A stretch of DNA of 27,712 bases from Promethearchaeota archaeon (GCA_016839585.1 JAEOTZ010000007.1:1-27712), one strand, 5' to 3'. Shown: positions 1,234 to 18,087, numbered from the stretch's first letter. Numbers and translations: made by a program. The notes: generated from the sequence alone by a model not told the origin.

Positions 1234-2567
1234 CTCTTTATTTTTCCTATTGATTTGGTATCTATTTTTGATTTCATAGCATAGAAAACAACGATTCCAC
1301 AGAGTATAATGATTATCTGAATAAGAATAATATACCAATTAAAAGTGAATAATAAAGCAATGCAGATAATTGATCCTAATAAAGCGATTACTGGATATCC
1401 TTTAATACTCGGTTTTAATTTAAAAGGTCTTTCTAAATCTGGTTTCTTTTTTCTTAAAGCAAGTAAGCTTATATTAACCAAGATAAAATTGATAAGCACA
1501 CCAAAGACAGTGGCATGTGCTACTAGTGATATATCTCCAAATAGGATTGGAATTATCGTAAAGCCCATAGTTAATAGAACAGCAATTATAGGAGTTCTAT
1601 ATTTTGGTGAAATTCTACTGAGTCCCTCGGGAAGCGCTTTATCACGGGCCATACCATACATCATTCGAGATGTAACAATCAGCATAATGAGAACTGTATT
1701 TGCTGTCGCGAATAATGCTATAAAAGACATGACTATTCCCCCTCCTGGTCCTAATATTTCTTTCGCAACAGAATTTAACGGAGCATCAGCATCTGCAATA
1801 TCACCATATGGTAATATACTAACCACTGCAATAGCAGTAAAACAGTAGAGAATAGTAGTAATTATAATCGAATAAATTATAGCTTTCGGTATGTTCTTTT
1901 GAGGTTCTTTAACTTCCTCTGCGATATTAGCAATGTCTTCAAAACCTATATACGCAAAGAATATCAATGCCACAGCTGAAAAAATTACAGCAAAAGATGA
2001 GCCTGATGGAAGTATGAAATAATTTGGCTCCTGTTTTCCAAAAAATCCAATTATAATGATTATAATTAACCCTGATGCTTCAATTAATGTAAATAGTATA
2101 TTAGTTCGAGTAGAAGTTTTAATTCCAATAAAATTTATTATACTAAGGATTAATACAAGAATTATTGCAAAAATAATATTAAGAAATATTGAGGGTATGT
2201 TAATTAAATCAGATAGATACCCCCCAAAAGCTAAAGCAACAGTGGAAGCAGATAGAATACCTGAAAAGATAATTATCCAACCTAAAATAAACGATAGTCT
2301 CCTTTTCTTAAATGCTTCCTCTGTATAAACAAATTCCGCAGCGCTTTTTGGATACATTGCAGAAAGTTCGGCATATGATAATCCTGTTAAAGCTCCAGTG
2401 ATTGAGGCTAAGATAAAGGCTAACCATGATAGATTTCCTGTTTTTCCCACAACTTCACCTATTAATGCGTAAATCCCTGCACCTAACACATTTCCTACAC
2501 CATATACGGTAAGTGCAAATAAGGAAACTCTGCGCTTGAGCTTTGGACTTTTTTTAGGTTCTTCCAT
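1230..2567 (-). CDS. APC-superfamily amino acid permease
   Basis: GNVLGAGIY TM1, SYAELSAMYP, FFAYIGFE, EEVKEPQKNIPKAI, SRMMYGMARD motifs; ~12 TM; ATG 2567 preferred because GGGAG SD lies upstream. Confidence 0.92.
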   Translation of the reverse strand: MEEPKKSPKLKRRVSLFALTVYGVGNVLGAGIYALIGEVVGKTGNLSWLAFILASITGALTGLSYAELSAMYPKSAAEFVYTEEAFKKRRLSFILGWIIIFSGILSASTVALAFGGYLSDLINIPSIFLNIIFAIILVLILSIINFIGIKTSTRTNILFTLIEASGLIIIIIIGFFGKQEPNYFILPSGSSFAVIFSAVALIFFAYIGFEDIANIAEEVKEPQKNIPKAIIYSIIITTILYCFTAIAVVSILPYGDIADADAPLNSVAKEILGPGGGIVMSFIALFATANTVLIMLIVTSRMMYGMARDKALPEGLSRISPKYRTPIIAVLLTMGFTIIPILFGDISLVAHATVFGVLINFILVNISLLALRKKKPDLERPFKLKPSIKGYPVIALLGSIICIALLFTFNWYIILIQIIIILCGIVVFYAMKSKIDTKSIGKIKS

Positions 2568-2666
2568 GATTACTCCCTTTTTCAATATGAATAATTATAT
2601 TTTCAATTTTATAAAAACTATATAGGAAAATTTCAAAATCAGATTTGAATTATTTAGAACTTCCAA

Positions 2667-3182
2667 TTATTTTAATTTCTCAACCCTTACAATGCATGGT
2701 TGCTGTCTATGTTTATGACTTCTTACTTTTTGTAATCTAACTTCTCTTCTTCTTTTAGCTTCTTCATATCTGCGTCGATCCTCTTCTGTTTCTGGGATGA
2801 TCTCTGGAATTTTAACTGGTTTATCATCTTCGTCCAGAGCAACAAAACTTAGATACGCTGATCCGACATGCGTGTGAGTTCCAGTTATTAAACATTCTGC
2901 TTCTATCCTTACTCCAACTTCTAGAGAGCTATGTGCAACATAATTTATTGATGCTTTAGCAAAAACTAAATTTCCTACATAAACAGGAGATATAAAATCC
3001 ATTCTATCAACTGAAGCCGTGACACAATTTCGATGAGTATGCCTTGCTGACACTATTGCTCCTGCTTGATCAACCATTTTTAATATATATCCTCCATGAA
3101 CATTACCAGCAGGGTTGGAGTGTTCTGGCATCATTACTTGGGTAAGCTCAATCCTAGATTCTGAAACTCTTTTTGCTTCCAA
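2667..3182 (-). CDS. Acyl-CoA thioesterase (hotdog fold, YciA-like)
   Basis: HSNPAGNVHGGYILKMVD, VTASVDRMDF, SSLEVGV, FVALD motifs. Confidence 0.92.
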   Translation of the reverse strand: MEAKRVSESRIELTQVMMPEHSNPAGNVHGGYILKMVDQAGAIVSARHTHRNCVTASVDRMDFISPVYVGNLVFAKASINYVAHSSLEVGVRIEAECLITGTHTHVGSAYLSFVALDEDDKPVKIPEIIPETEEDRRRYEEAKRRREVRLQKVRSHKHRQQPCIVRVEKLK

Positions 3183-3398
3183 AATATAATTACCTACTCA
3201 AAATATATTTTGTTATAGAAATACAAATGTCTAAAATGATAATAAAAATTTCTGTTTTAAATTATAATTTTTACTTCTTTCTGCTAATATATCCAACTCT
3301 TTCTTGTAATCATTATATTTAAATTTGAAGTAAATTTTTCTTATTTACTAAAATTTGATTACTCATTCATTAGTAGAATATTGTTAAAGTGGTAATTT

Positions 3399-7714: not shown

Positions 7715-10129
7715 TTGGTTGGTAAGAGATTGATTACTGAGAAGACAACTAAAAGAACAATAAAACTGAAAAATAATCTATTATCAAGTAAATATGAACT
7801 ATGTATCGAACGTATGAAATTTTTTACTGAAATCTATAAAAAATACCCAGATGATCCTGAAATCATAAAACGAGCAAAAGCTATAGCTCATACTTTAAGA
7901 AATATGACCATTTTTATCCGAGAAAACGAATTACTTGTAGGAAATGAGACAAGTAAAAATCTAGGAGAGAAAATCTTTTTAGACTTATACTCGTATGACA
8001 GGACCTTAGATGATCGAAATAGTATTCAGAAATACAAAAATAGAAAACTACAACCCTTCTATCTTGAAGATAATGAAATTGATGAACTTTTAAAAATAAT
8101 TCCTTTTTGGAGAGACAAGGCAGTATATGGTGATATCATTCCGAAAGAATTATTTGCAAAGAAATTAATTACCGGATTAGACAGAATTAAAGCAGCGGCT
8201 CCTAATATAGCTATAGCAAATGGCACAAATGAAGGACATATCTGTGTTAATTATGATAAATTATTGAAATTAGGATTTAATGGTATTCTTAGAGAAGTAG
8301 AATCTTATCAATCATCTTTAAGCAAAAATGATTCGAAATATGAAGAAAAGTTCAATTTTTATGAAGCTGTTAAAACTTGTTATGAAGCGGCAATAAGCTT
8401 TTCTAAAAGATACTCTGATCTTGCTTATAATATGTATTCATATGAAGAAAATAAAAAACGCAAAAAAGAACTTGAAGAAATTGCGAGAATGATGGAAAAA
8501 TTTACTATAGCAACTGCTGAAACATTTTACGAAGCTGTTCAGCTAATCCATTTCACGCAAAATATAATCAATATCATTTATCAGAGAAGTGTAGTAGCAT
8601 TAGGACGGCTTGATCAGATATTATGGCCTTATTTTCAGAGCGATTTGGAAAAGAACACGATTACAAGAGATTTTGCTTTAGAATTGATTGAAGAGTTAAA
8701 TTTGAAGCTAACTTGGAACGTAACATTATTACCAACAGACTATACTATGGTTGCAAATGCTTTTGGGCAAAATACTCAAACCATAACTATATCAGGAGTA
8801 GATATAAATGGGTTTGATATTACAAATGATCTTTCTTATCTATTTCTTGAAGCATATAAAAATATCAAAGCTTTAACTACGGATTTATCAATTAGAATTC
8901 ATAGAGCTACTCCAAAAGAATTTTTCAAAAAAGCAATAAAATTATTTCAATTCACATCTGGAATTGCATTCTATAATGATGATATCATTATACCAGCTCT
9001 AGAAAAAGCAGGTTATTCTTTTGAAGACGCACAAAATTATGCTTTAATAGGATGTGTTGAGCCTACTAGTCAAGGAAATACATTTGCTGCAACAGGTAGA
9101 ATGTATATAAATTTACCGGGTGTTCTCGAATTAGTTCTTAACAATGGATATTGTAATTTAACCAAACAAAAAAGTGGGTTAGAAACAGGAAATCCGATTA
9201 ATTTTGCAACCTTTGATGATTTATATAAGGCATTTATCCAGCAACTACGGTATAATATTGAGAAATCTGTTAAAGTAGCAGAAATAGGCGATAACATGAC
9301 TATAAAGTATTTTCAACAGCCTTTTATCTCTGCTCTAATTGACGGATGTGTAGAAAGTGGTAAAGATTATACTGAAGGCGGGGCTAAATATAACTTCTCT
9401 TCTATAACTGCATATGGCTTTGCTACATTAGTAGATTCGTTGTATAATATAAAGAAATTAGTGTTTGAAGAAAAATTAATGTCATTACCAGAACTAGTTC
9501 AAATTTTAAATTCAAATTTTAAAGGTCAAGAAGAACTTAGACAAAAATTAATAAATAAATATGATAAATGGGGAAATGATAAAGAAGAAATTGATTCATT
9601 TGCCTCAGAATTATGGGATTTATACTGTTCTGAAGTTGTAAAACATAAATGCATTAGAGGAGGTCGTTATAATCCCGGTGCTTATTCAATGGGAGTCCAT
9701 GTAATGGAAGGTCTTTTTACAAAACCTACTGCTGATGGTAGAAAAGCAATGCAACCGATCTCTAATAGCCTTTCACCGGTAAATAAGGTAGAAAAAAATG
9801 GAATTACCGCAACGCTAAATTCAATCGCAAAATTGAATTATGATTTAGCTACAAATGGAGTAGCTGTAAATGTAAGGATCCACCCCCAAAATCTTAAAAA
9901 TGAAGAAAATGTGGATAAATTCTATCATTTGCTTAAATCTTATTTTGAATTAGGAGGAATGCAAGTACAACCTAATGTTGTTTCAACTGAAACATTAAGA
10001 GATGCTCAAAAGCATCCAGAACAATATCCCGATTTAATAGTTAAAGTTGGAGGTTATAACGCAACTTTCGTGGATTTAGGTGCTCCAATTCAAAAGGATA
10101 TAATTGATAGATTAGAATATAACTTCTAA
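7715..10129 (+). CDS. Glycyl radical enzyme (PFL2/eliminase-like), substrate unknown
   Basis: 804 aa; ELLVGN, LGRLDQIL, GCVEP Cys loop, TADGRK, DAQKHPEQYPDLIVKVGGYNATF glycyl loop. Confidence 0.92.
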   Translation: MVGKRLITEKTTKRTIKLKNNLLSSKYELCIERMKFFTEIYKKYPDDPEIIKRAKAIAHTLRNMTIFIRENELLVGNETSKNLGEKIFLDLYSYDRTLDDRNSIQKYKNRKLQPFYLEDNEIDELLKIIPFWRDKAVYGDIIPKELFAKKLITGLDRIKAAAPNIAIANGTNEGHICVNYDKLLKLGFNGILREVESYQSSLSKNDSKYEEKFNFYEAVKTCYEAAISFSKRYSDLAYNMYSYEENKKRKKELEEIARMMEKFTIATAETFYEAVQLIHFTQNIINIIYQRSVVALGRLDQILWPYFQSDLEKNTITRDFALELIEELNLKLTWNVTLLPTDYTMVANAFGQNTQTITISGVDINGFDITNDLSYLFLEAYKNIKALTTDLSIRIHRATPKEFFKKAIKLFQFTSGIAFYNDDIIIPALEKAGYSFEDAQNYALIGCVEPTSQGNTFAATGRMYINLPGVLELVLNNGYCNLTKQKSGLETGNPINFATFDDLYKAFIQQLRYNIEKSVKVAEIGDNMTIKYFQQPFISALIDGCVESGKDYTEGGAKYNFSSITAYGFATLVDSLYNIKKLVFEEKLMSLPELVQILNSNFKGQEELRQKLINKYDKWGNDKEEIDSFASELWDLYCSEVVKHKCIRGGRYNPGAYSMGVHVMEGLFTKPTADGRKAMQPISNSLSPVNKVEKNGITATLNSIAKLNYDLATNGVAVNVRIHPQNLKNEENVDKFYHLLKSYFELGGMQVQPNVVSTETLRDAQKHPEQYPDLIVKVGGYNATFVDLGAPIQKDIIDRLEYNF

Positions 10130-10162: not shown

Positions 10163-11449
10163 CTAGATTTTAATATTATTAATATTTGAGCTAATTTCAT
10201 TAATTAAACTCGGATCATCATAATTTATTCTTCTAATGCTTGAAAAGCTCCAAATTAAAATAGTTGTTGAGATCATTAAAAGAGCACTGTATAATAATAG
10301 ATTAGCATTTCCTATTAGAGTTGCTAAGGGTCCTGTTAAAATAGTCGCAATTGGTGATATCGACATAGATAAAGTGTGATCTATTGATGTAACTCTGCCG
10401 ATTTTATCTTTGGGCACAGTAGTTTGTATCCATGTTTGATATAAAGAATTTATAATTGGAAGCATTATACCCAGTACAAAGCCGCCTATACCGATTATAA
10501 AAAATGCACCTGTTGGAGCTATAGAAAATATTACATAACCTATTCCAGCAACTACTATACCAAGAAAAATAATCCTCATTCTATTTGACCATTTTTTTTT
10601 AAATGAGGCTACCAGAGCACCAATGATCATACCTCCTTGAAAAGAAATCATAGTTAAAGCAAAAATTAATTTAGTTCCTCCATGATCTATTAGAATATAA
10701 AGTGACATTAAAGTATCTAATGGTCTTATTAGAAAATTTACAAACATACCTAAAATTATCATTGCTGTTAATCCAGGGATCAATTTTACTGTTTTATAAC
10801 CCATTTTAAATTCTTTAATAAATGAATCTTTTTCTGTAGTTCCAGGATTTTCTACAAGATGTTTCGCTGAAGGAATACTTATTAGCAATAATGGAATCAA
10901 CGCTATGAAAAAAGTAATAACATCTGCCCATAGAAGGTGATTAATCGTTAAAAATACCAATAGAAGTGCTGCTAAAAATTGAGCAGAAAGTTGAACTACT
11001 CCAGTAAATAAATAATTTATTCCATTAATTTTGGTTAATTTTTCTTGCGGAACCATAGCAGGGATGATTGCATTTACCGTAGGTAAATGGAACGCTTGAA
11101 ATACACTCCGTAAGCTAATAAAAATAAGCATCATCCATGTAGTTAAAATATTGAATTGAAATAGAATAATTAGTAAAAATGTAGCAAATGCTTGTAATGA
11201 ATCTACAACAATTATTAAGGTTTTTCGATTTACTCTATCAGCAAATACTCCCGCAATTGGCATACAAATTGTCATGGGGAGTATGTACATAAATGAAGCG
11301 GTCGCCATAAACATAGCACTTCCTGTTTCAAGCGTTAACCATATTGTTATAGCAAAAAATACTATAGTTGATCCAAATAAAGAAAATAATTGTCCTGTCC
11401 AAAAAAAGAGATAATTCCTATAGGTTCTTTTATTTGCTGTATCCTCCAT
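10163..11449 (-). CDS. MFS transporter (DHA3/MefA-like efflux family)
   Basis: 12 TM; GQLFSLFGS, AGVFADRVNRK motif A, QAFHLP, QTTVPKDKIGRV. Confidence 0.9.
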   Translation of the reverse strand: MEDTANKRTYRNYLFFWTGQLFSLFGSTIVFFAITIWLTLETGSAMFMATASFMYILPMTICMPIAGVFADRVNRKTLIIVVDSLQAFATFLLIILFQFNILTTWMMLIFISLRSVFQAFHLPTVNAIIPAMVPQEKLTKINGINYLFTGVVQLSAQFLAALLLVFLTINHLLWADVITFFIALIPLLLISIPSAKHLVENPGTTEKDSFIKEFKMGYKTVKLIPGLTAMIILGMFVNFLIRPLDTLMSLYILIDHGGTKLIFALTMISFQGGMIIGALVASFKKKWSNRMRIIFLGIVVAGIGYVIFSIAPTGAFFIIGIGGFVLGIMLPIINSLYQTWIQTTVPKDKIGRVTSIDHTLSMSISPIATILTGPLATLIGNANLLLYSALLMISTTILIWSFSSIRRINYDDPSLINEISSNINNIKI

Positions 11450-11461
11450 TTTTTACATCTA

Positions 11462-12724
11462 CTAGTCGATTATTTCTGGCACAATTGGTTCTATATGTAT
11501 ACTGTAATCTATGTGTCGAATGCTTGTAAAGAAATATAAAGAGAGAGAAAATATAATCATAGTAATAGCGCAAATTAAGAATAAAAGTTGTATTCCAATT
11601 AATTCAGCGATAGGTCCTGCTATCACTGATCCTAAAGGAGAAATTATCATCGAAAGAGTAGTATCTATAGATATCACTCTTCCAAGCTTATCCTGAGGTA
11701 CTTTTGTTTGTAAGATTGTTGAGTATAGTATGTTTATGAATGGAACAACAAGTCCTACTGTCAATAGAGTAATTCCTATTAAAATGAAAAATCCTTTTGG
11801 GATCAATGCTAAGATTGCATACCCCACACCTGCAAACGCGAGCACATAAAACATTATAGGGATCTTATGCTTCCATTCTTTTTTGAGCGATGTTATTATC
11901 GCACCACCTATCATTCCCACTTGAAGAAAGATTAGAACTAATGCATATTCAAACTCTAAGCCTCCATGTATAGTATTAACGTAATAGGGCATTAGAGTAC
12001 CTAAGGGTTGGGTGAGAAAGTTGACAAATATCGACATAATTAGAAGAATTACCAAACCTGGCACTGCTTTTAATGCTACAAATCCAATTTTGAAATCCTT
12101 AATGAAACCATTCTTTTCTTTTTGATCTGAATGATCTCTTACGAAGGGAATCTTTATTATTATTAAAGGAATTAAAGCAATGAGGAATGTGATTACGTCA
12201 ACCCATAAAATTTGATCTATTGTGAAAAATTGCCATAAAAATGCTCCAAGTGCTGGACCAATGAGTTGTACAAGAGCTATAAATAAAAAATTAACGCTAT
12301 TTATTCTACTGATTTTATCTTTTGGAACCATTGTCGGGGTAATTGATGCTACAGCAGGTTGATGAAAAGCTTGAAAAATACTTCTTAAGCCTATAAAGAG
12401 AAAGATAAGCCATATACTCGTTACATCGAATATGAAAAAGATAATAAGAATAAGGGTAGCATATGCTTGTAATGAATCCACAACTAGGATAATATTTTTT
12501 CGCTTTAACTTATCTGTTAACACTCCGGCAATCGGCATAAATAATAACATAGGCAAAAAGTAAAAGAATTGCCCCAAAGAAAGAACTGTTGGACTCTCTG
12601 TTTTAACCTGTAACCACCATATAATTACAAAATGAACAACCATTGAACCTAACAAAGAAAATAACTGACCTACCCAAAAAAAGATAAATTCTTTGAAGGT
12701 TTTATCTGTCGGTATAACTTCCAT
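11462..12724 (-). CDS. MFS transporter (DHA3/MefA-like efflux family), paralog of neighbour
   Basis: GQLFSLLGS, AGVLTDKLKRK, QAFHQP, QTKVPQDKLGRV. Confidence 0.9.
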   Translation of the reverse strand: MEVIPTDKTFKEFIFFWVGQLFSLLGSMVVHFVIIWWLQVKTESPTVLSLGQFFYFLPMLLFMPIAGVLTDKLKRKNIILVVDSLQAYATLILIIFFIFDVTSIWLIFLFIGLRSIFQAFHQPAVASITPTMVPKDKISRINSVNFLFIALVQLIGPALGAFLWQFFTIDQILWVDVITFLIALIPLIIIKIPFVRDHSDQKEKNGFIKDFKIGFVALKAVPGLVILLIMSIFVNFLTQPLGTLMPYYVNTIHGGLEFEYALVLIFLQVGMIGGAIITSLKKEWKHKIPIMFYVLAFAGVGYAILALIPKGFFILIGITLLTVGLVVPFINILYSTILQTKVPQDKLGRVISIDTTLSMIISPLGSVIAGPIAELIGIQLLFLICAITMIIFSLSLYFFTSIRHIDYSIHIEPIVPEIID

Positions 12725-12784
12725 TTTTTATCCCCTAATTTCCTAATTATTTTTTGTTTCTATATTTTTTTTATTAATGAAAGT

Positions 12785-13660
12785 TTACATTTTATCAATT
12801 ATTTCAAAAAGCTTAGAAAGAACCACTTCAGGATCGCCCGTAAATTTGAATACTCCTTCCTCCAGATCTCCCTCAATACCTTCCGCTGCTAATTCATAAA
12901 TTAAATTCTCCGCATCTTCATTAGTTATATTTAATGCTTGAGCAAGTTTTTCAATTGGTAATGTTTTTTGAAGCTTGATTAATCCCTTGATACGCATTTT
13001 AATTCGTTCCTTATCGACTTCTTTAGATTCTTTAATTTTCATTAAAACCTTTCCTTTACCTTTTTTAATGCCTCGCTCAATTTTTTCTTCTAATTCCTCC
13101 AATCCAGATTCCTTTACAGCTTTTTCAATACTTTTACCTAGATTTTCTAACTTACCAATATCCCCTATATTATTTTTGACAAATTTCATTGATTTTCGAA
13201 CCAACTCTGAAACTGAAGATCCTAAATTATCTGCCCAATCTCTCCATTCATTACTCATCTCAGGATCGACTGAAATGTTTATTCGCTTTACGTTTTCCCT
13301 TGCTTTCTTCTTTGCCTTTTCTAACTTTTTTATTACTTTGTTTTCATATTTTTCTTCAAGCTTGGCAACTTTATCTTTTAAACTTTCAATGTACGTTCTT
13401 GTATATTCGATCTGTTCACTAGTGTTTTCTCCTAATCCTTCGATTTGTTCCTTTATTCCTTCTATTTCTTCTAATAATGATTTTCTTTCCTCTTTAATAT
13501 CTTCTAATTCATCGCTCACTTCTTCTTTTATATCTTCAGCTTCCACTTTTATATCCTCCATAGAATCCTTAAGATCTTCATTTAAGTCTTCCAATTCTTC
13601 CATAAGTTCCCGCTGGATCTTATATAATTCCGCTCTTATTTTTTCTTTTTCATTTGACAT
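12785..13660 (-). CDS. Putative regulator: acidic coiled coil, ribbon-helix-helix domain and C-terminal PCI-like winged helix
   Basis: N-terminal EDIKEE-type helical repeats; RINISVDPEMSNEWRDWADNLGSSVSELVRKSM fits the RHH/CopG pattern; LPIEKLAQALNITNEDAENLIYELAAEGIEGDL fits PCI/wHTH; GGTGG SD. Confidence 0.7.
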   Translation of the reverse strand: MSNEKEKIRAELYKIQRELMEELEDLNEDLKDSMEDIKVEAEDIKEEVSDELEDIKEERKSLLEEIEGIKEQIEGLGENTSEQIEYTRTYIESLKDKVAKLEEKYENKVIKKLEKAKKKARENVKRINISVDPEMSNEWRDWADNLGSSVSELVRKSMKFVKNNIGDIGKLENLGKSIEKAVKESGLEELEEKIERGIKKGKGKVLMKIKESKEVDKERIKMRIKGLIKLQKTLPIEKLAQALNITNEDAENLIYELAAEGIEGDLEEGVFKFTGDPEVVLSKLFEIIDKM

Positions 13661-13713
13661 AATACCACCTACTAATTTTTTTTAAATTTGATTAGGTTTT
13701 GATTTTTTTAATT

Positions 13714-13765
13714 TTTTTTTTCATAAACTTGATTGGTAAACTTGATTTAAATTATTGAAAAAAAA
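13714..13765 (-). repeat. Hairpin element copy 2 (10-bp A/U-rich stem, loop with two AAUCAAGUUUA copies)
   Basis: TTTTTTTTCA (13714-13723) pairs with TGAAAAAAAA (13756-13765); TAAACTTGATT at 13724-13734 and 13737-13747. Confidence 0.55.
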
Positions 13766-13775
13766 TGTGAGTTAA

Positions 13776-13865
13776 TTAGTAGATTATAATAGACCTATTC
13801 AGTCTGGAATCTACTTTACTCTTCACTTCAAAAATATCCTTTTCTATATCATTAGCAATTTTCAT
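13776..13865 (-). CDS. Small peptide B, 29 aa (MKIANDIEKDIFEVKSKVDSRLNRSIIIY), not in ORF track
   Basis: GGAGGT SD (13879-13874) 8 nt upstream of ATG; ungapped similarity to peptide A. Confidence 0.7.
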   Translation of the reverse strand: MKIANDIEKDIFEVKSKVDSRLNRSIIIY

Positions 13866-13950
13866 TTTTTTTTACCTCCATGTTTTTTTTAAGTTTTGTT
13901 TGGTTTTTTGGTAAATTTTAATTTCTAATTGATTGTTTTATTTTTCTTAT

Positions 13951-13984
13951 TTTTTTTTATGAACTTGATTTACAATAAAAAAAA
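13951..13984 (-). repeat. Hairpin element copy 1 (10-bp A/U-rich stem, loop with AAAUCAAGUUC)
   Basis: TTTTTTTTAT (13951-13960) pairs with ATAAAAAAAA (13975-13984); loop GAACTTGATTTACA. Confidence 0.55.
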
Positions 13985-13998
13985 TAGATTAATTATTA

Positions 13999-14064
13999 TT
14001 AGAAAACTCTCGGAAGATACAAAACTTTTCTATCTAATTCGACCTTCAATTCCTCATAATCCAT
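13999..14064 (-). CDS. Small peptide A, 21 aa (MDYEELKVELDRKVLYLPRVF), not in ORF track
   Basis: AAAGGAGGT SD 7 nt upstream of ATG; triple TAA stop; similarity to peptide B. Confidence 0.7.
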   Translation of the reverse strand: MDYEELKVELDRKVLYLPRVF

Positions 14065-14120
14065 TTTTTTAACCTCCTTTTTTATTTTTTTGTTTTTATT
14101 TTTTTTTTTAATTAAAAAAT

Positions 14121-14268
14121 ATACACACTAGTATTTAAATGTTGTGTTATTGATGTGTATCCTTTTATTAAATTCTTTGTGAAAGCAAAGATTAGGAGGC
14201 TTCATAATAAATTTTATTAGTGTGTAGCGAACTATATATGCATTTTTTTTAATACATACTGATACACA
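14121..14268 (-). promoter_or_regulatory. Putative promoter (TTTAAATA at 14139-14132) with clustered TACAC(A) inverted-repeat operator sites
   Basis: ATACACA 14121-27 / TGTGTAT 14154-60 flank the TATA-like box; TACACACTA 14122-30 / TAGTGTGTA 14218-26; TGTGTATC 14154-61 / GATACACA 14261-68. Confidence 0.5.
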
Positions 14269-16332: not shown

Positions 16333-18087
16333 TTAGGTTTGATATTTTATATCATACTTTTTTTTAATCACTAGGGCAATGGTAACACTTACCACAGTAA
16401 TAATCAACACAAAATTATAACCTGGAATTTCTGGAGAACTTTTTTCTGGTGTTTCGAGTCCCCCATCTATAATTGTCCAAGAAAAGTTGGTAATGATAAA
16501 TTGTCTAGCATCCACAGCCACACTGCTATATTTTGAATTACCTGCATGAAATGTTACACCGAAGTGTAAGGTTAATTGCGACCAACCTAATAATAAATTA
16601 TCATAATTAGATGTCGATAGTTTAACTGCATAGAACATATTATCCATTTCTCTCACACTCGAGATATTCCAATTTCCAAGGGGTTGATTAAATGAAGAAG
16701 CACTATAGAACATATAGTGCATGGATGTTAAACTTGAGACATCCCAATTGCCAATGGGCTGGTTGAATGAAGAAGCCCCAGAGAACATATAACCCATATA
16801 TGTTACGCTCGAGACATCCCAATTACCGATGGGCTGATTAAATGAAGAAGCCCCCCAAAACATCATACCCATATCTGTCACGCTCGAGACATCCCAATTG
16901 CCAATGGGCTGGTTGAATGAAGAAGCCCCAGAGAACATATAACCCATATATATCACGCTCGAGACATCCCAGTTGCTAATGGGTTGATTGAATGAAGAAG
17001 CCCCATCAAACATCCTAGACAGATCTATTATACTCGAGACATCCCAATTGCCAAGGGGCTGGTTGAATAAAGAAGCCCCATAGAACATCCCATAAATGAA
17101 TATCACACTCGAGACATTCCAATTACCAATGGGCTGATTAAATGAAGAAGCCCCCCTAAACATCTCTCTCATATCTACCACGCTCGAGACATCCCAATTG
17201 CCAAGGGGCTGGTTGAATGAAAAAGCCTCATAGAACATCCTAGGCATATTTTCCACGCTCGAGACATCCCAATTACCGATGGGCTGATTAAATGAAGAAG
17301 CCGCCCAAAACATCCCAATCATATCTGTCACGCTCGAGACATCCCAATTGCCAATGGGCTGGTTGAATGAAGAAGCCCCACAAAACATCCCAGACATATC
17401 TGTCACGCTCGAAACGTCCCAGCCATTCATATTACCGCTACTACTAAGATTTTCGCAACCAATAAAGGCCATAGATAAATCAGTCGTTCCTGTTAAATTC
17501 AAATTATCAGTAGCCGTGAGTTTTAAATTGGAGCACCCGTGAAAATAACTCCCTAAATTTCCTAATCGTAGGCAACCCCATTGTTGAATTTCAAGTATCT
17601 TCAGTTGATCTCCGACACTAACACCAAACCGCCAGCCTATGATGGTTCCTGTGATATTGATGGTGTACACTCCTCCGGAAGTATAGGTATGTGTAACGGC
17701 AGCTTGATTCCAGACCGTGATCGTATCATTGCTCCCGTCTCCCCAATTCACTATGAAATTATATGTTCCGCTCGATTGCAATGGTAAGTGTATTTGATTG
17801 CTATTGGTTGAACCTGGTTTAGTCGTGTTCCAGACTGAAATAAACTCGTTTGGATCTGATGCAACTAGATTTTTACCACTAGAACCAAAACTTGTCTCCC
17901 TCGTTTCCCAATGCGACGTAAAATCGTTCGGATCTGATGTGGTAGGTGCTAAAAAATCCATACCGGTGAACGTTTGCTTTTGTCCATAAAGTGGGGACGT
18001 AAAGGTCGAAATGTTTACCAATACTAAAGATAATACTACAAAAACTGCAGTTAACTTTACTGCTTTATTTTTTATCAATCTAATCAC
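16333..18087 (-). CDS. BspA-like/DUF285 repeat surface protein with PKD-like domain and Loki-CTERM-like anchor
   Basis: Signal peptide; VNWGDG...HTY PKD-like motif; ~11 25-aa [16 protein letters not shown] repeats; C-terminal EIPGY + TM + KKK. Confidence 0.88.
16631..17425. repeat. 75-bp coding tandem repeat (~10.5 units) with alternating A/B unit types
   Basis: CTCGAGACATCCCAATT and AATGAAGAAGCCC recur every 75 bp; GGTTGAAT and GATTAAAT variants alternate. Confidence 0.9.

Follow-up and report, generated by a model that had tools for sequence, protein, structure and literature searches.

Several bacterial small regulatory proteins are encoded beside their target gene, as with MntS and MntR/MntP, AcrZ and AcrB, and MgtS and MgtA, and these proteins work in trans through binding to a larger protein. 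The archaeal locus described here resembles them in having products of fewer than 50 residues, each from its own Shine-Dalgarno (SD)-led gene, in being linked to a transporter/regulator module, and in its putative control by a dedicated transcription factor. However, it has no sequence relation to them, its micro-genes occur in tandem (one to three copies) as well as alone, and their products look cytoplasmic rather than like membrane helices. The module also includes a bactofilin and a coiled-coil/RHH/PCI protein, and binding to a partner is putative. The second comparison is with RHH repressors of the CopG/Arc/MetJ type, which act on arrays of short repeats. Here the likeness consists of a near-invariant RHH-like core, short boxes that bracket a TATA box, and a clustering of those boxes that is unique in the genome. 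However, the RHH segment is flanked on one side by a helical hairpin of 125 residues and on the other by a PCI/DDRGK-like winged helix, its Pfam score is sub-threshold, and DNA binding is predicted. To our knowledge this architecture has not been described among RHH regulators.

The window (the whole stretch of DNA that was analysed, 27,712 nt) contains the following features, in order of transcription:

14122–14268, minus strand, promoter region of the first micro-gene, with the TATA box TTTAAATA at 14132–14139 and four TACACA/TGTGTA boxes
14263–14268, 14221–14226, 14154–14159 and 14122–14127, the TACACA/TGTGTA boxes, the last two forming an inverted pair that brackets the TATA box
13999–14077, minus strand, micro-gene a: GGAGG at 14073–14077, A-run, ATG at 14062–14064, 21 codons, stop at 13999–14001
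13959–13984, minus strand, T8 run (13977–13984, 14 nt past the stop of a) and inter-unit motif AATCAAGTTCAT (13959–13970)
13776–13879, minus strand, micro-gene b: GGAGG at 13875–13879, A-run, ATG at 13863–13865, 29 codons, stop at 13776–13778
13723–13765, minus strand, T8 run (13758–13765, 10 nt past the stop of b) and two copies of AATCAAGTTTAY
12785–13669, minus strand, gene for a 291-aa protein with its GGTGG SD (13665–13669): helical hairpin 2–125, RHH-like core ~125–170, PCI/DDRGK-like winged helix 217–290
11462–12724, minus strand, MFS transporter 1, 420 aa, Mef/DHA3-like (MFS_1 112.8 bits, MFS_3 100.8 bits)
10163–11449, minus strand, MFS transporter 2, 428 aa, 47% identical to its paralogue, transporter 1

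An earlier note on this DNA had proposed two strong-SD minus-strand ORFs, of 21 aa (13999–14064) and 29 aa (13776–13865), co-oriented with the 291-aa gene (12785–13660) and two MFS genes; the ORFs and their co-orientation are both as described. GGAGGT occurs eight times in the window, and only two copies, those of a (14072–14077) and b (13874–13879), have SD spacing to a start codon, 8–9 nt 5' of each ATG with an A-run between. The combined GGWGG, A-run and ATG signature is found 22 times genome-wide. Five examples lead into ORFs of at most 40 aa, and two of these are a and b. The flush alignment of the last 20 residues, also claimed, is borne out, though it is modest by itself (C-anchored and ungapped, 4 identities, BLOSUM62 score 14, shuffle p 0.005); among 12,241 genomic ATG-led small ORFs, 8 and 26 score as high against the respective peptides. 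As DNA, the two ~230-nt units are identical in 75% of alignment columns, and their stop codons and the downstream AATCAAGTT motif are in register; a direct repeat (D1, spacing 236) involves the segment 13723–13765.

What is decisive for the reality of these ORFs is that small SD-led ORFs of this kind turn up again in other genomes, at the orthologous loci. On these comparisons the 21- and 29-aa ORFs are identified as genuine protein-coding micro-genes, divergent members of a family of unannotated 21–39-residue proteins that, as far as searched, belongs to one genus of Promethearchaeota (Lokiarchaeia). Units occur singly or in tandem sets of up to three, each with a strong SD (GGAGG/GGTGG), an A-rich spacer and an ATG. 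One to three copies lie 5' of orthologues of the 291-aa gene at 35 of the 50 loci with at least 1500 nt of upstream sequence, and at least five additional loci carry divergent types, while ~10 well-covered loci showed no micro-gene. Homologues of this gene are preceded by conserved small ORFs in variable number (0–3 copies), the pattern for which the earlier note proposed to scan. At E ≤ 0.001 the family is found in 31 of the genus's 52 genomes, this one among them, and in none of 99 genomes from 23 other genera of the order; a looser scan of the genus (E ≤ 0.1) finds it in 39 of 54. Within the genus, micro-genes are present in 31 of 43 genomes with the RHH/PCI gene and in 1 of 11 without it (Fisher p 2e-4, over lineages that are not independent).

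The core of the family is roughly [GS]-Y-E-x-[YLI]-[KE]-x-[VIL]-K-x-x-[hydrophobic]-[DY], and the C-terminus is hydrophobic or aromatic. Paralogue types diverge in DNA but retain this core. Their C-terminal tails are type-specific, and the conserved Lys lies 8 to 18 residues from the C-terminus. Charged residues occur along the whole length of the peptides (net charge –1 to +5), with only 3–6 hydrophobic residues at the C-terminus. The lack of any hydrophobic stretch of membrane-spanning length speaks against a type I toxin-like or membrane micro-protein, and the lack of a cyclodehydratase, radical-SAM enzyme, lanthionine synthetase or similar conserved in the cluster speaks against a RiPP precursor. 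One option put forward earlier was that the peptides are amphipathic and bind the regulator's coiled coil; in a hydrophobic-moment test they are no more amphipathic than shuffled versions.

Selection could be assessed in the best-sampled subtype (A-type, 18 sequences, every one of 27 codons), the window's own two genes having no near-identical orthologues among the sequences compared. In the A-type genes dN/dS is 0.31 in frame as compared with 0.95 and 1.09 in the other two frames, there are 0 internal stops in frame (18 x 27 codons) as compared with 7 and 95, and the third codon position varies most. ORF length is fixed, and the SD and ATG are conserved. For this subfamily, the dN/dS test suggested earlier shows purifying selection on the annotated reading frame.

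The two window peptides can both be aligned with the family core (alignment A3). However, they are divergent, and it is their position, the orthology of the promoter and close look-alikes that place them in the family. Micro-gene a sits where relatives have their first, A-type unit, behind an orthologous promoter. Micro-gene b most closely resembles the single micro-genes of loci L066 and L076, with N-D-I-E-K / E-K-D-I and V-K-S-K-V / K-A-R-V-D in common, and its exact 29-aa sequence is present, unnamed, in public protein sets. In the six-frame scan of the genus, b is the one match to the family reported for its own genome (E 6e-6, with a profile that contains b). With a profile built without the window peptides, the 29-aa ORF comes 5th (E 1.6) among 122,483 genomic ORFs, and its 21-aa counterpart is not in the top 12. 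A search of this genome for further family copies found none.

The family's first unit is preceded by a highly conserved TATA promoter with flanking TACACA boxes. In relatives, conserved ATACACAC boxes are set 32–35 nt apart around TTTAAATA, and a promoter profile made from relatives only has its best genome-wide match at 14062–14149, upstream of micro-gene a (E 0.056). In the whole 3.45-Mb genome, 14122–14268 is the only cluster of at least four TACACA/TGTGTA boxes within 150 nt. Past the stop codons, T-runs start after 7–14 nt. The one following a is a putative archaeal oligo-T terminator. In relatives, too, non-final units are followed by a T-run plus a ATCAnGnTnATCAAAA-like motif, while the final units of cassettes have no T-run and the next SD comes directly. 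The two AATCAAGTTTAY copies (13736–13747 and 13723–13734) are placed 65–85 nt 5' of the next start codon.

Of 54 genomes from the genus, 43 have an orthologue of the 291-aa protein, and its public relatives are all unnamed or 'hypothetical'. The earlier reading of this gene as coiled-coil/RHH/PCI-like holds at a weak to moderate level. The N-terminal half is helical. RHH_5 matches at E 0.028 (14.6 bits, below the cut-off of 26), and the segment is near-invariant in 14 orthologues (R-I-N-I-S-V-D-P, then G-A-S-V-S-E-L-V-R-K). A monomer model of it has a pLDDT of 40–50, which fits a fold that requires a dimer without proving one. The C-terminus is assigned a PCI/DDRGK-type winged helix by both gathering score and predicted fold: PCI (PF01399) scores 23.9 bits for the C-terminal 76 aa alone (cut-off 22) and 20.9 for the whole protein, DDRGK matches at E 0.007, and residues 217–290 are modelled at a pLDDT of ~83 with H-E-H-H-E-E-H topology. 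Foldseek matches include DDRGK1/UFL1, PCI subunits of the CSN and Rpn kinds, and winged helices of the MarR type, each at E > 1e-3.

The usual module in relatives consists of micro-genes, a bactofilin, the coiled-coil/RHH/PCI protein, one or more M29 aminopeptidases, and one or more Mef-like MFS genes. This genome has kept the micro-genes together with the RHH/PCI gene and two MFS genes, and has lost the bactofilin and peptidase parts. The peptide, regulator and MFS genes of the original picture are thus in place, but that picture lacked the bactofilin and M29 aminopeptidases usual elsewhere. A co-oriented MFS gene follows the 291-aa homologue at 42 of the 49 loci with enough downstream sequence, in agreement with the suggested synteny. 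The idea of a peptide-regulator-exporter operon stands as far as co-orientation of micro-genes, RHH/PCI gene and MFS genes is concerned, but the micro-genes track the RHH/PCI protein and not the transporters. Four loci have micro-genes with an RHH/PCI paralogue and no MFS gene; truncated paralogues in this arrangement are seen at L055/L125 and L123. In addition, stand-alone micro-genes with the same promoter, followed by convergent genes, occur at second loci (L052, L054 and L056).

Taken together, it is probable that genuine coding micro-genes, individually terminated units, operator boxes for the RHH protein and trans-acting partner peptides form one system. Each non-final unit would be transcribed separately, as a short RNA that terminates at the T-run past the stop codon, with putative inter-unit promoters. 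The TACACA boxes are a candidate operator of the adjacent RHH protein, in which case the micro-genes would be the first, tightly controlled output of this regulator. The peptides may be cytoplasmic small proteins that act in trans by partnering or modulating the module; their likeliest target is the RHH/PCI protein, the one neighbour that the micro-genes never lose. The stand-alone copies facing convergent genes likewise suggest products that act in trans rather than as leader peptides in cis.

That leader-peptide option, raised in the earlier note, is the first alternative. Translation of the micro-ORF, for instance through ribosome pausing at the stop or close to it, would set termination at the T-run and read-through into the RHH/PCI and Mef-like genes, by analogy with bacterial mef, erm and tna control. 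The gene mef(A) is under leader-peptide control, and the locus shares with the mef(A)/msr(D), erm and TnaC attenuators a short conserved ORF 5' of a Mef-like MFS gene and a T-run near the stop. The micro-ORFs are co-oriented with the operon and directly 5' of it, their peptide sequence is conserved like that of arrest peptides, and an attenuator would place its T-runs in much the same way. However, intact, conserved copies with the same promoter at L052, L054 and L056 have no cis target, which weakens this option, and micro-genes are also kept at loci without MFS genes. Final units end without a T-run, the spacing between the conserved Lys and the C-terminus is not constant, and there are no conserved alternative RNA structures. 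The first gene 3' of the micro-genes is that of the DNA-binding protein or a bactofilin, not a pump. The locus is also archaeal, and we know of no established case of ribosome-mediated attenuation in archaea. Control in cis by leader peptides seems unlikely.

Equally doubtful is the view that the micro-genes encode precursors of exported signals or antimicrobials, in which the conserved centre would serve for recognition and the C-terminal tail would be active, with peptidases trimming the product, Mef/EntS-like pumps exporting it and the RHH/PCI protein sensing it. Copy number is variable, the tails are type-specific, and the micro-genes adjoin a DNA-binding protein, 1–4 MFS_3-type transporters and, in relatives, M29 aminopeptidases, with the numbers of peptides and of pumps both varying. 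The RRNPP/Rgg-SHP systems of Firmicutes are similar in their peptide genes of 20–35 codons, with basic N-terminus and hydrophobic C-terminus, in variable paralogues beside a transcription factor. In contrast to those systems, the conserved part here is the peptide centre, there are no Opp/PptAB-type transport genes, the regulator lacks a peptide receptor domain of the TPR type, and secretion and processing are putative. The family sequences have no signal peptide, double-glycine leader or membrane segment, MFS pumps of the Mef/DHA3 kind are known for small molecules and not for 3-kDa peptides, the cluster has no conserved RiPP-type modifying enzyme, and some loci with micro-genes have neither MFS nor peptidase genes. 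A decidedly unlikely reading is a circuit of peptide-based signalling or autoregulation: the RHH/PCI protein would repress the TACACA promoter, the micro-proteins themselves or pump-exported, M29-trimmed C-terminal fragments would feed back on it, and the tails would give specificity. If true, this would be the first description of peptide-mediated regulation or communication in an Asgard archaeon.

That the ORFs are a by-product of A/T-rich repeated promoter/terminator DNA or of a small RNA, with the peptides never made, is very improbable: the region does have 25–27% G+C and many low-complexity runs, and the non-coding flanks are conserved at least as much as the micro-ORFs, but the frame-specific substitution and stop counts, the fixed length with conserved SD and ATG, the peptide core kept by paralogues that differ in DNA, and an Rfam search with no match all count against it.

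The earlier description of two paralogous DHA3-type MFS genes agrees with their 47% identity and with their matches, both genes being well over threshold for Pfam MFS_1 and MFS_3. TIGR00900 gives 250 bits for transporter 1 and 223 for transporter 2, both under the curated cut-off of 319.6. Mef(A) and Mef(C) match the two genes at E 1e-52 to 1e-55 (Mef(A) against transporter 1, E 1e-52), far under the 'exception' cut-offs. The two are accordingly classed, by sequence similarity, as DHA3-like (TC 2.A.1.21) or Mef-like. At a few loci a nitroreductase-fold gene also neighbours the module.

The apparently empty interval upstream of the gene for the 291-aa coiled-coil/RHH/PCI protein (the RHH/PCI protein) does contain the two minus-strand ORFs claimed in an earlier note on this DNA, each led by a Shine-Dalgarno (SD) sequence. 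Both lie between the 216-aa and 291-aa genes.

13999-14064, minus strand: micro-gene a, 21 codons
13776-13865, minus strand: micro-gene b, 29 codons
14456-15106: 216-aa gene, flanking the small-ORF interval opposite the 291-aa gene
12785-13660, minus strand: 291-aa gene, downstream of both small ORFs

In both micro-genes, GGAGGT and then an A-run precede the ATG. This hexamer occurs eight times in the 27.7-kb window and stands at SD distance from a start only before these two ORFs. The ungapped alignment of the peptides' C-termini is also real, but modest in strength (4 identities, BLOSUM62 score 14, shuffle p 0.005); an equal or better C-anchored score is reached by just 8 and 26 of 12,241 genomic small ORFs. 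At the DNA level the two ~230-nt units show 75% column identity, with their stop codons and a downstream AATCAAGTT motif in register, and on this alignment they look like an old tandem duplication. The source assembly (3.45 Mb, 99% complete) includes the window as contig C31, and the gelsolin and LRR genes also encoded there fit an Asgard archaeon. The G+C content is 0.43 at 17001-18000, inside the gene for a 584-aa DUF285 repeat protein (16333-18087, minus strand), and about 0.30 elsewhere.

Orthologues of the 291-aa protein (54-64% identity) are found in 43 of the 54 genomes of the genus. Upstream of them, on the same strand, lie SD-led ORFs of 21-39 codons that align as one family (alignment A3). 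The core reads roughly [GS]-Y-E-x-[YLI]-[KE]-x-[VIL]-K-x-x-hydrophobic-[DY], and is followed by 8-18 residues with a hydrophobic or aromatic C-terminal end. Four subtypes recur: a 27-aa form that is usually first, two last-position types, and one of 23-29 aa. Copy number varies, as the earlier note had proposed. Of 62 loci sampled separately from species-representative genomes, 50 had at least 1500 nt upstream and were counted; 35 of these carry one (16 loci), two (14) or three (5) copies, and divergent versions occur in at least five of the remainder. Six-frame scans at E <= 0.001, made with a profile that drew on some of the genomes later scanned and matched many new loci besides, gave family matches for 31 of the genus's 52 genomes, the source genome among them; 99 genomes drawn from 23 further genera of the order gave none. 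Relaxing the genus scan to E <= 0.1 gave 39 of 54. Within the genus the family is present in 31 of 43 genomes with the 291-aa gene versus 1 of 11 without it; these lineages are not independent, and the cross-genome counts generally take in related lineages.

The profile missed two small ORFs, with 28 and 37 codons and an SD each, that lie 900-1300 nt upstream of the RHH/PCI gene at two related loci (L069, L085). The 37-codon ORF has L-N-P-R-Y-F-E-E in common with one micro-gene of another locus (L039), and both are probably additional subtypes. In another family of the order (locus L050, G038:C1), a 29-codon ORF with GGTGG, an A-run and ATG lies about 2.27 kb upstream of an RHH/PCI homologue and precedes a pair of bactofilin-like and RHH/PCI genes; in sequence it resembles the family core no more than vaguely.

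Judged by sequence alone, the case for including the window's own ORFs is weak: a profile built without the window peptides gives the 29-aa ORF an E of 1.6, at rank 5 of 122,483 genomic ORFs. Their membership is instead supported by three independent lines. They sit at the position orthologous to the relatives' micro-genes; the best genome-wide match to a promoter profile built from relatives only (14062-14149) is directly upstream of micro-gene a; and the 29-aa peptide closely resembles the products of the single micro-genes at loci L066 and L076. A pair of membrane proteins (175-190 aa) encoded upstream in the window recurs at L066 and L065. No further family copy was found in the source genome, where the top non-locus profile matches have no start codon or SD. 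On contig C90, near 32447 (plus strand), an 18-codon ORF shows the same rare GGWGG, A-run and ATG signature as the micro-genes.

The best-sampled subtype comprises 18 genes from main and second loci, all of exactly 27 codons. Pairwise dN/dS in this set, a check that the earlier note had proposed, is 0.31 in the annotated frame versus 0.95 and 1.09 in the other frames; internal stops number 0 versus 7 and 95, and variation is greatest at third codon positions. This frame-specific substitution pattern indicates a translated gene under purifying selection rather than an RNA or a DNA repeat, and the micro-proteins are very likely a real, conserved and translated family. Gene callers skip ORFs of less than about 30 codons. 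The few members of at least 29 residues that are present in public protein collections are all unnamed, while the 21-aa peptide and one 27-aa relative were absent from the public protein sets in which they were looked up. An NCBIfam scan of 27 peptides gave no match, no Rfam family matched in the window, and a full-text literature search found no description of the micro-protein family or the module.

The promoter ahead of the first unit is strikingly conserved in the relatives. It carries ATACACAC boxes at intervals of 32-35 nt; they lie ahead of a canonical TTTAAATA box, directly behind it, and again some 55 nt past it. This TATA box is present in the window too.

14132-14139, minus strand: TATA box, the same as that of the relatives

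The stretch 14122-14268 holds four TACACA/TGTGTA boxes, two of which bracket the TATA box as an inverted pair. Nowhere else in the genome (density 0.037 per 150 nt) do four or more such boxes fall within 150 nt, and the boxes of the window form a putative operator. Non-final units are followed, 7-14 nt past the stop, by T-runs of at least 8 that may act as archaeal oligo-T terminators; T-runs of the window lie at 13977-13984 and 13758-13765. After the T-run comes a ATCAnGnTnATCAAAA-like motif (AATCAAGTT in the window), 65-100 nt ahead of the next start codon and presumably part of the next promoter. Final units lead directly into the SD of the gene that follows. A conserved hairpin after the peptide gene (U8 with a downstream A-run, AAUCAAGUU loop) was considered and rejected: relatives keep the T-run and ATCAnGnT, but usually not the matching A-run. 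The post-stop element is thus read as a DNA motif behind a T-run terminator. A sigma-70 and terminator scan of the window, with models not applicable to archaea, gave nothing useful.

The usual order in the genus is a 110-aa ubiquitin-fold gene, the micro-genes, sometimes a nitroreductase-fold gene, a 227-aa bactofilin, the RHH/PCI protein, 0-2 M29 aminopeptidases and 1-4 or more MFS genes. The supposed synteny of MFS genes with the regulator holds well, with a co-oriented MFS gene after the RHH/PCI gene in 42 of the 49 loci whose downstream sequence was long enough. In the source genome bactofilin is entirely absent and the M29 and ubiquitin-fold genes are kept elsewhere, outside the module; the same reduced form is seen in a few relatives (L031, L038, L076). 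Bactofilin and RHH/PCI genes remain adjacent in other families of the order, where no micro-genes were detected.

The coiled-coil/RHH/PCI-like reading of the 291-aa protein has weak to moderate support from its three regions. A helical hairpin is predicted for residues 2-125 (pLDDT 56-76); the RHH-like segment, residues about 125-170, hardly varies (RHH_5, E 0.028); and residues 217-290 form a confidently modelled winged helix. Scanned alone, the winged helix exceeds the Pfam PCI threshold and matches the DDRGK domain weakly. Foldseek matches include DDRGK1/UFL1, CSN and Rpn PCI subunits, and MarR-type winged helices, all at E > 1e-3; DDRGK1 is a UFM1-ligase adaptor. All 445 public relatives are unnamed or 'hypothetical'. 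The two downstream MFS proteins, described earlier as DHA3-type paralogues, are 47% identical to each other and nearest TIGR00900 (DHA3) and Mef pumps, but their scores fall under curated cut-offs.

Several roles for the micro-proteins can be weighed. Export as signals or toxins, and a role as RiPP precursors, are both made less likely: the peptides show neither a signal sequence nor a segment that could span the membrane, and no conserved modifying enzyme was found near the cluster. A function as leader peptides, another suggestion of the earlier note, conflicts with the second loci, where intact, conserved first-type micro-genes have the same box-laden promoter and the next gene is convergent (L052, L054, L056). 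Stand-alone copies of this kind have no gene to lead in cis, which points to a product acting in trans. Amphipathic peptides were a further option of the earlier note, but in a hydrophobic-moment test the peptides' maximum does not exceed that of shuffled versions (fraction 0.23-0.84). A type I toxin is rejected on the lack of a membrane span, and a classical toxin-antitoxin system is also rejected.

Some loci that have no MFS genes (L055/L125, L123) also carry micro-genes, here ahead of a truncated RHH/PCI paralogue, and micro-genes are kept in genomes that lost bactofilin. This leaves the RHH/PCI protein as the one constant partner. At L055/L125 (G051:C48, about 2319-3283) two micro-genes lie directly upstream of the 183-aa paralogue, which has no N-terminal helical hairpin; neither bactofilin nor MFS genes are present. 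On the best account, the micro-proteins would be small cytoplasmic proteins under tight regulation. Their genes would give short transcripts from a promoter under operator control, with the RHH/PCI protein as its probable regulator, and the products may act on this protein or on some other component of the module. That they are a trans-acting partner within this module has about an even chance of being correct.

To our knowledge, hardly any work has addressed small proteins in archaea, and none at all in Asgard archaea, the prokaryotes most closely related to eukaryotes. The locus offers a testable entry into their gene regulation and small-protein biology: a micro-protein family backed by comparative evidence of translation, with a defined, unusually conserved promoter and putative operator, a candidate regulator of its own whose architecture is unusual (helical hairpin, RHH and PCI/DDRGK-like winged helix), and fixed genomic partners (bactofilin, peptidases and efflux-type pumps). 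It also adds genes that annotation pipelines now miss.

In many relatives the 110-aa ubiquitin-fold gene directly precedes the micro-gene cassette, as at L040 (4201-4533, plus strand) and also at L037, L041, L043, L045 and L060; in the source genome it is on contig C61, at about 136.8-139.3 kb. Its product, whose N-terminus is disordered and whose last residues are A-G, matches Pfam ubiquitin (E 4e-6). The winged helix of the RHH/PCI protein is weakly similar to DDRGK1, and a link to a ubiquitin-like system is possible. Downstream of the RHH/PCI gene, M29 and Mef-like MFS genes alternate in tandem (L060, which is G058:C66, L057, L062 and others), for example as M29-MFS-M29-MFS-MFS, which suggests that peptidase and transporter work as a pair. 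Finally, a PFL-like glycyl-radical enzyme gene (7715-10129, plus strand) is convergent with the MFS genes of the window, and its recurrence at the same module end in L035, L038, L043, L046, L047 and L065 marks a conserved locus boundary.
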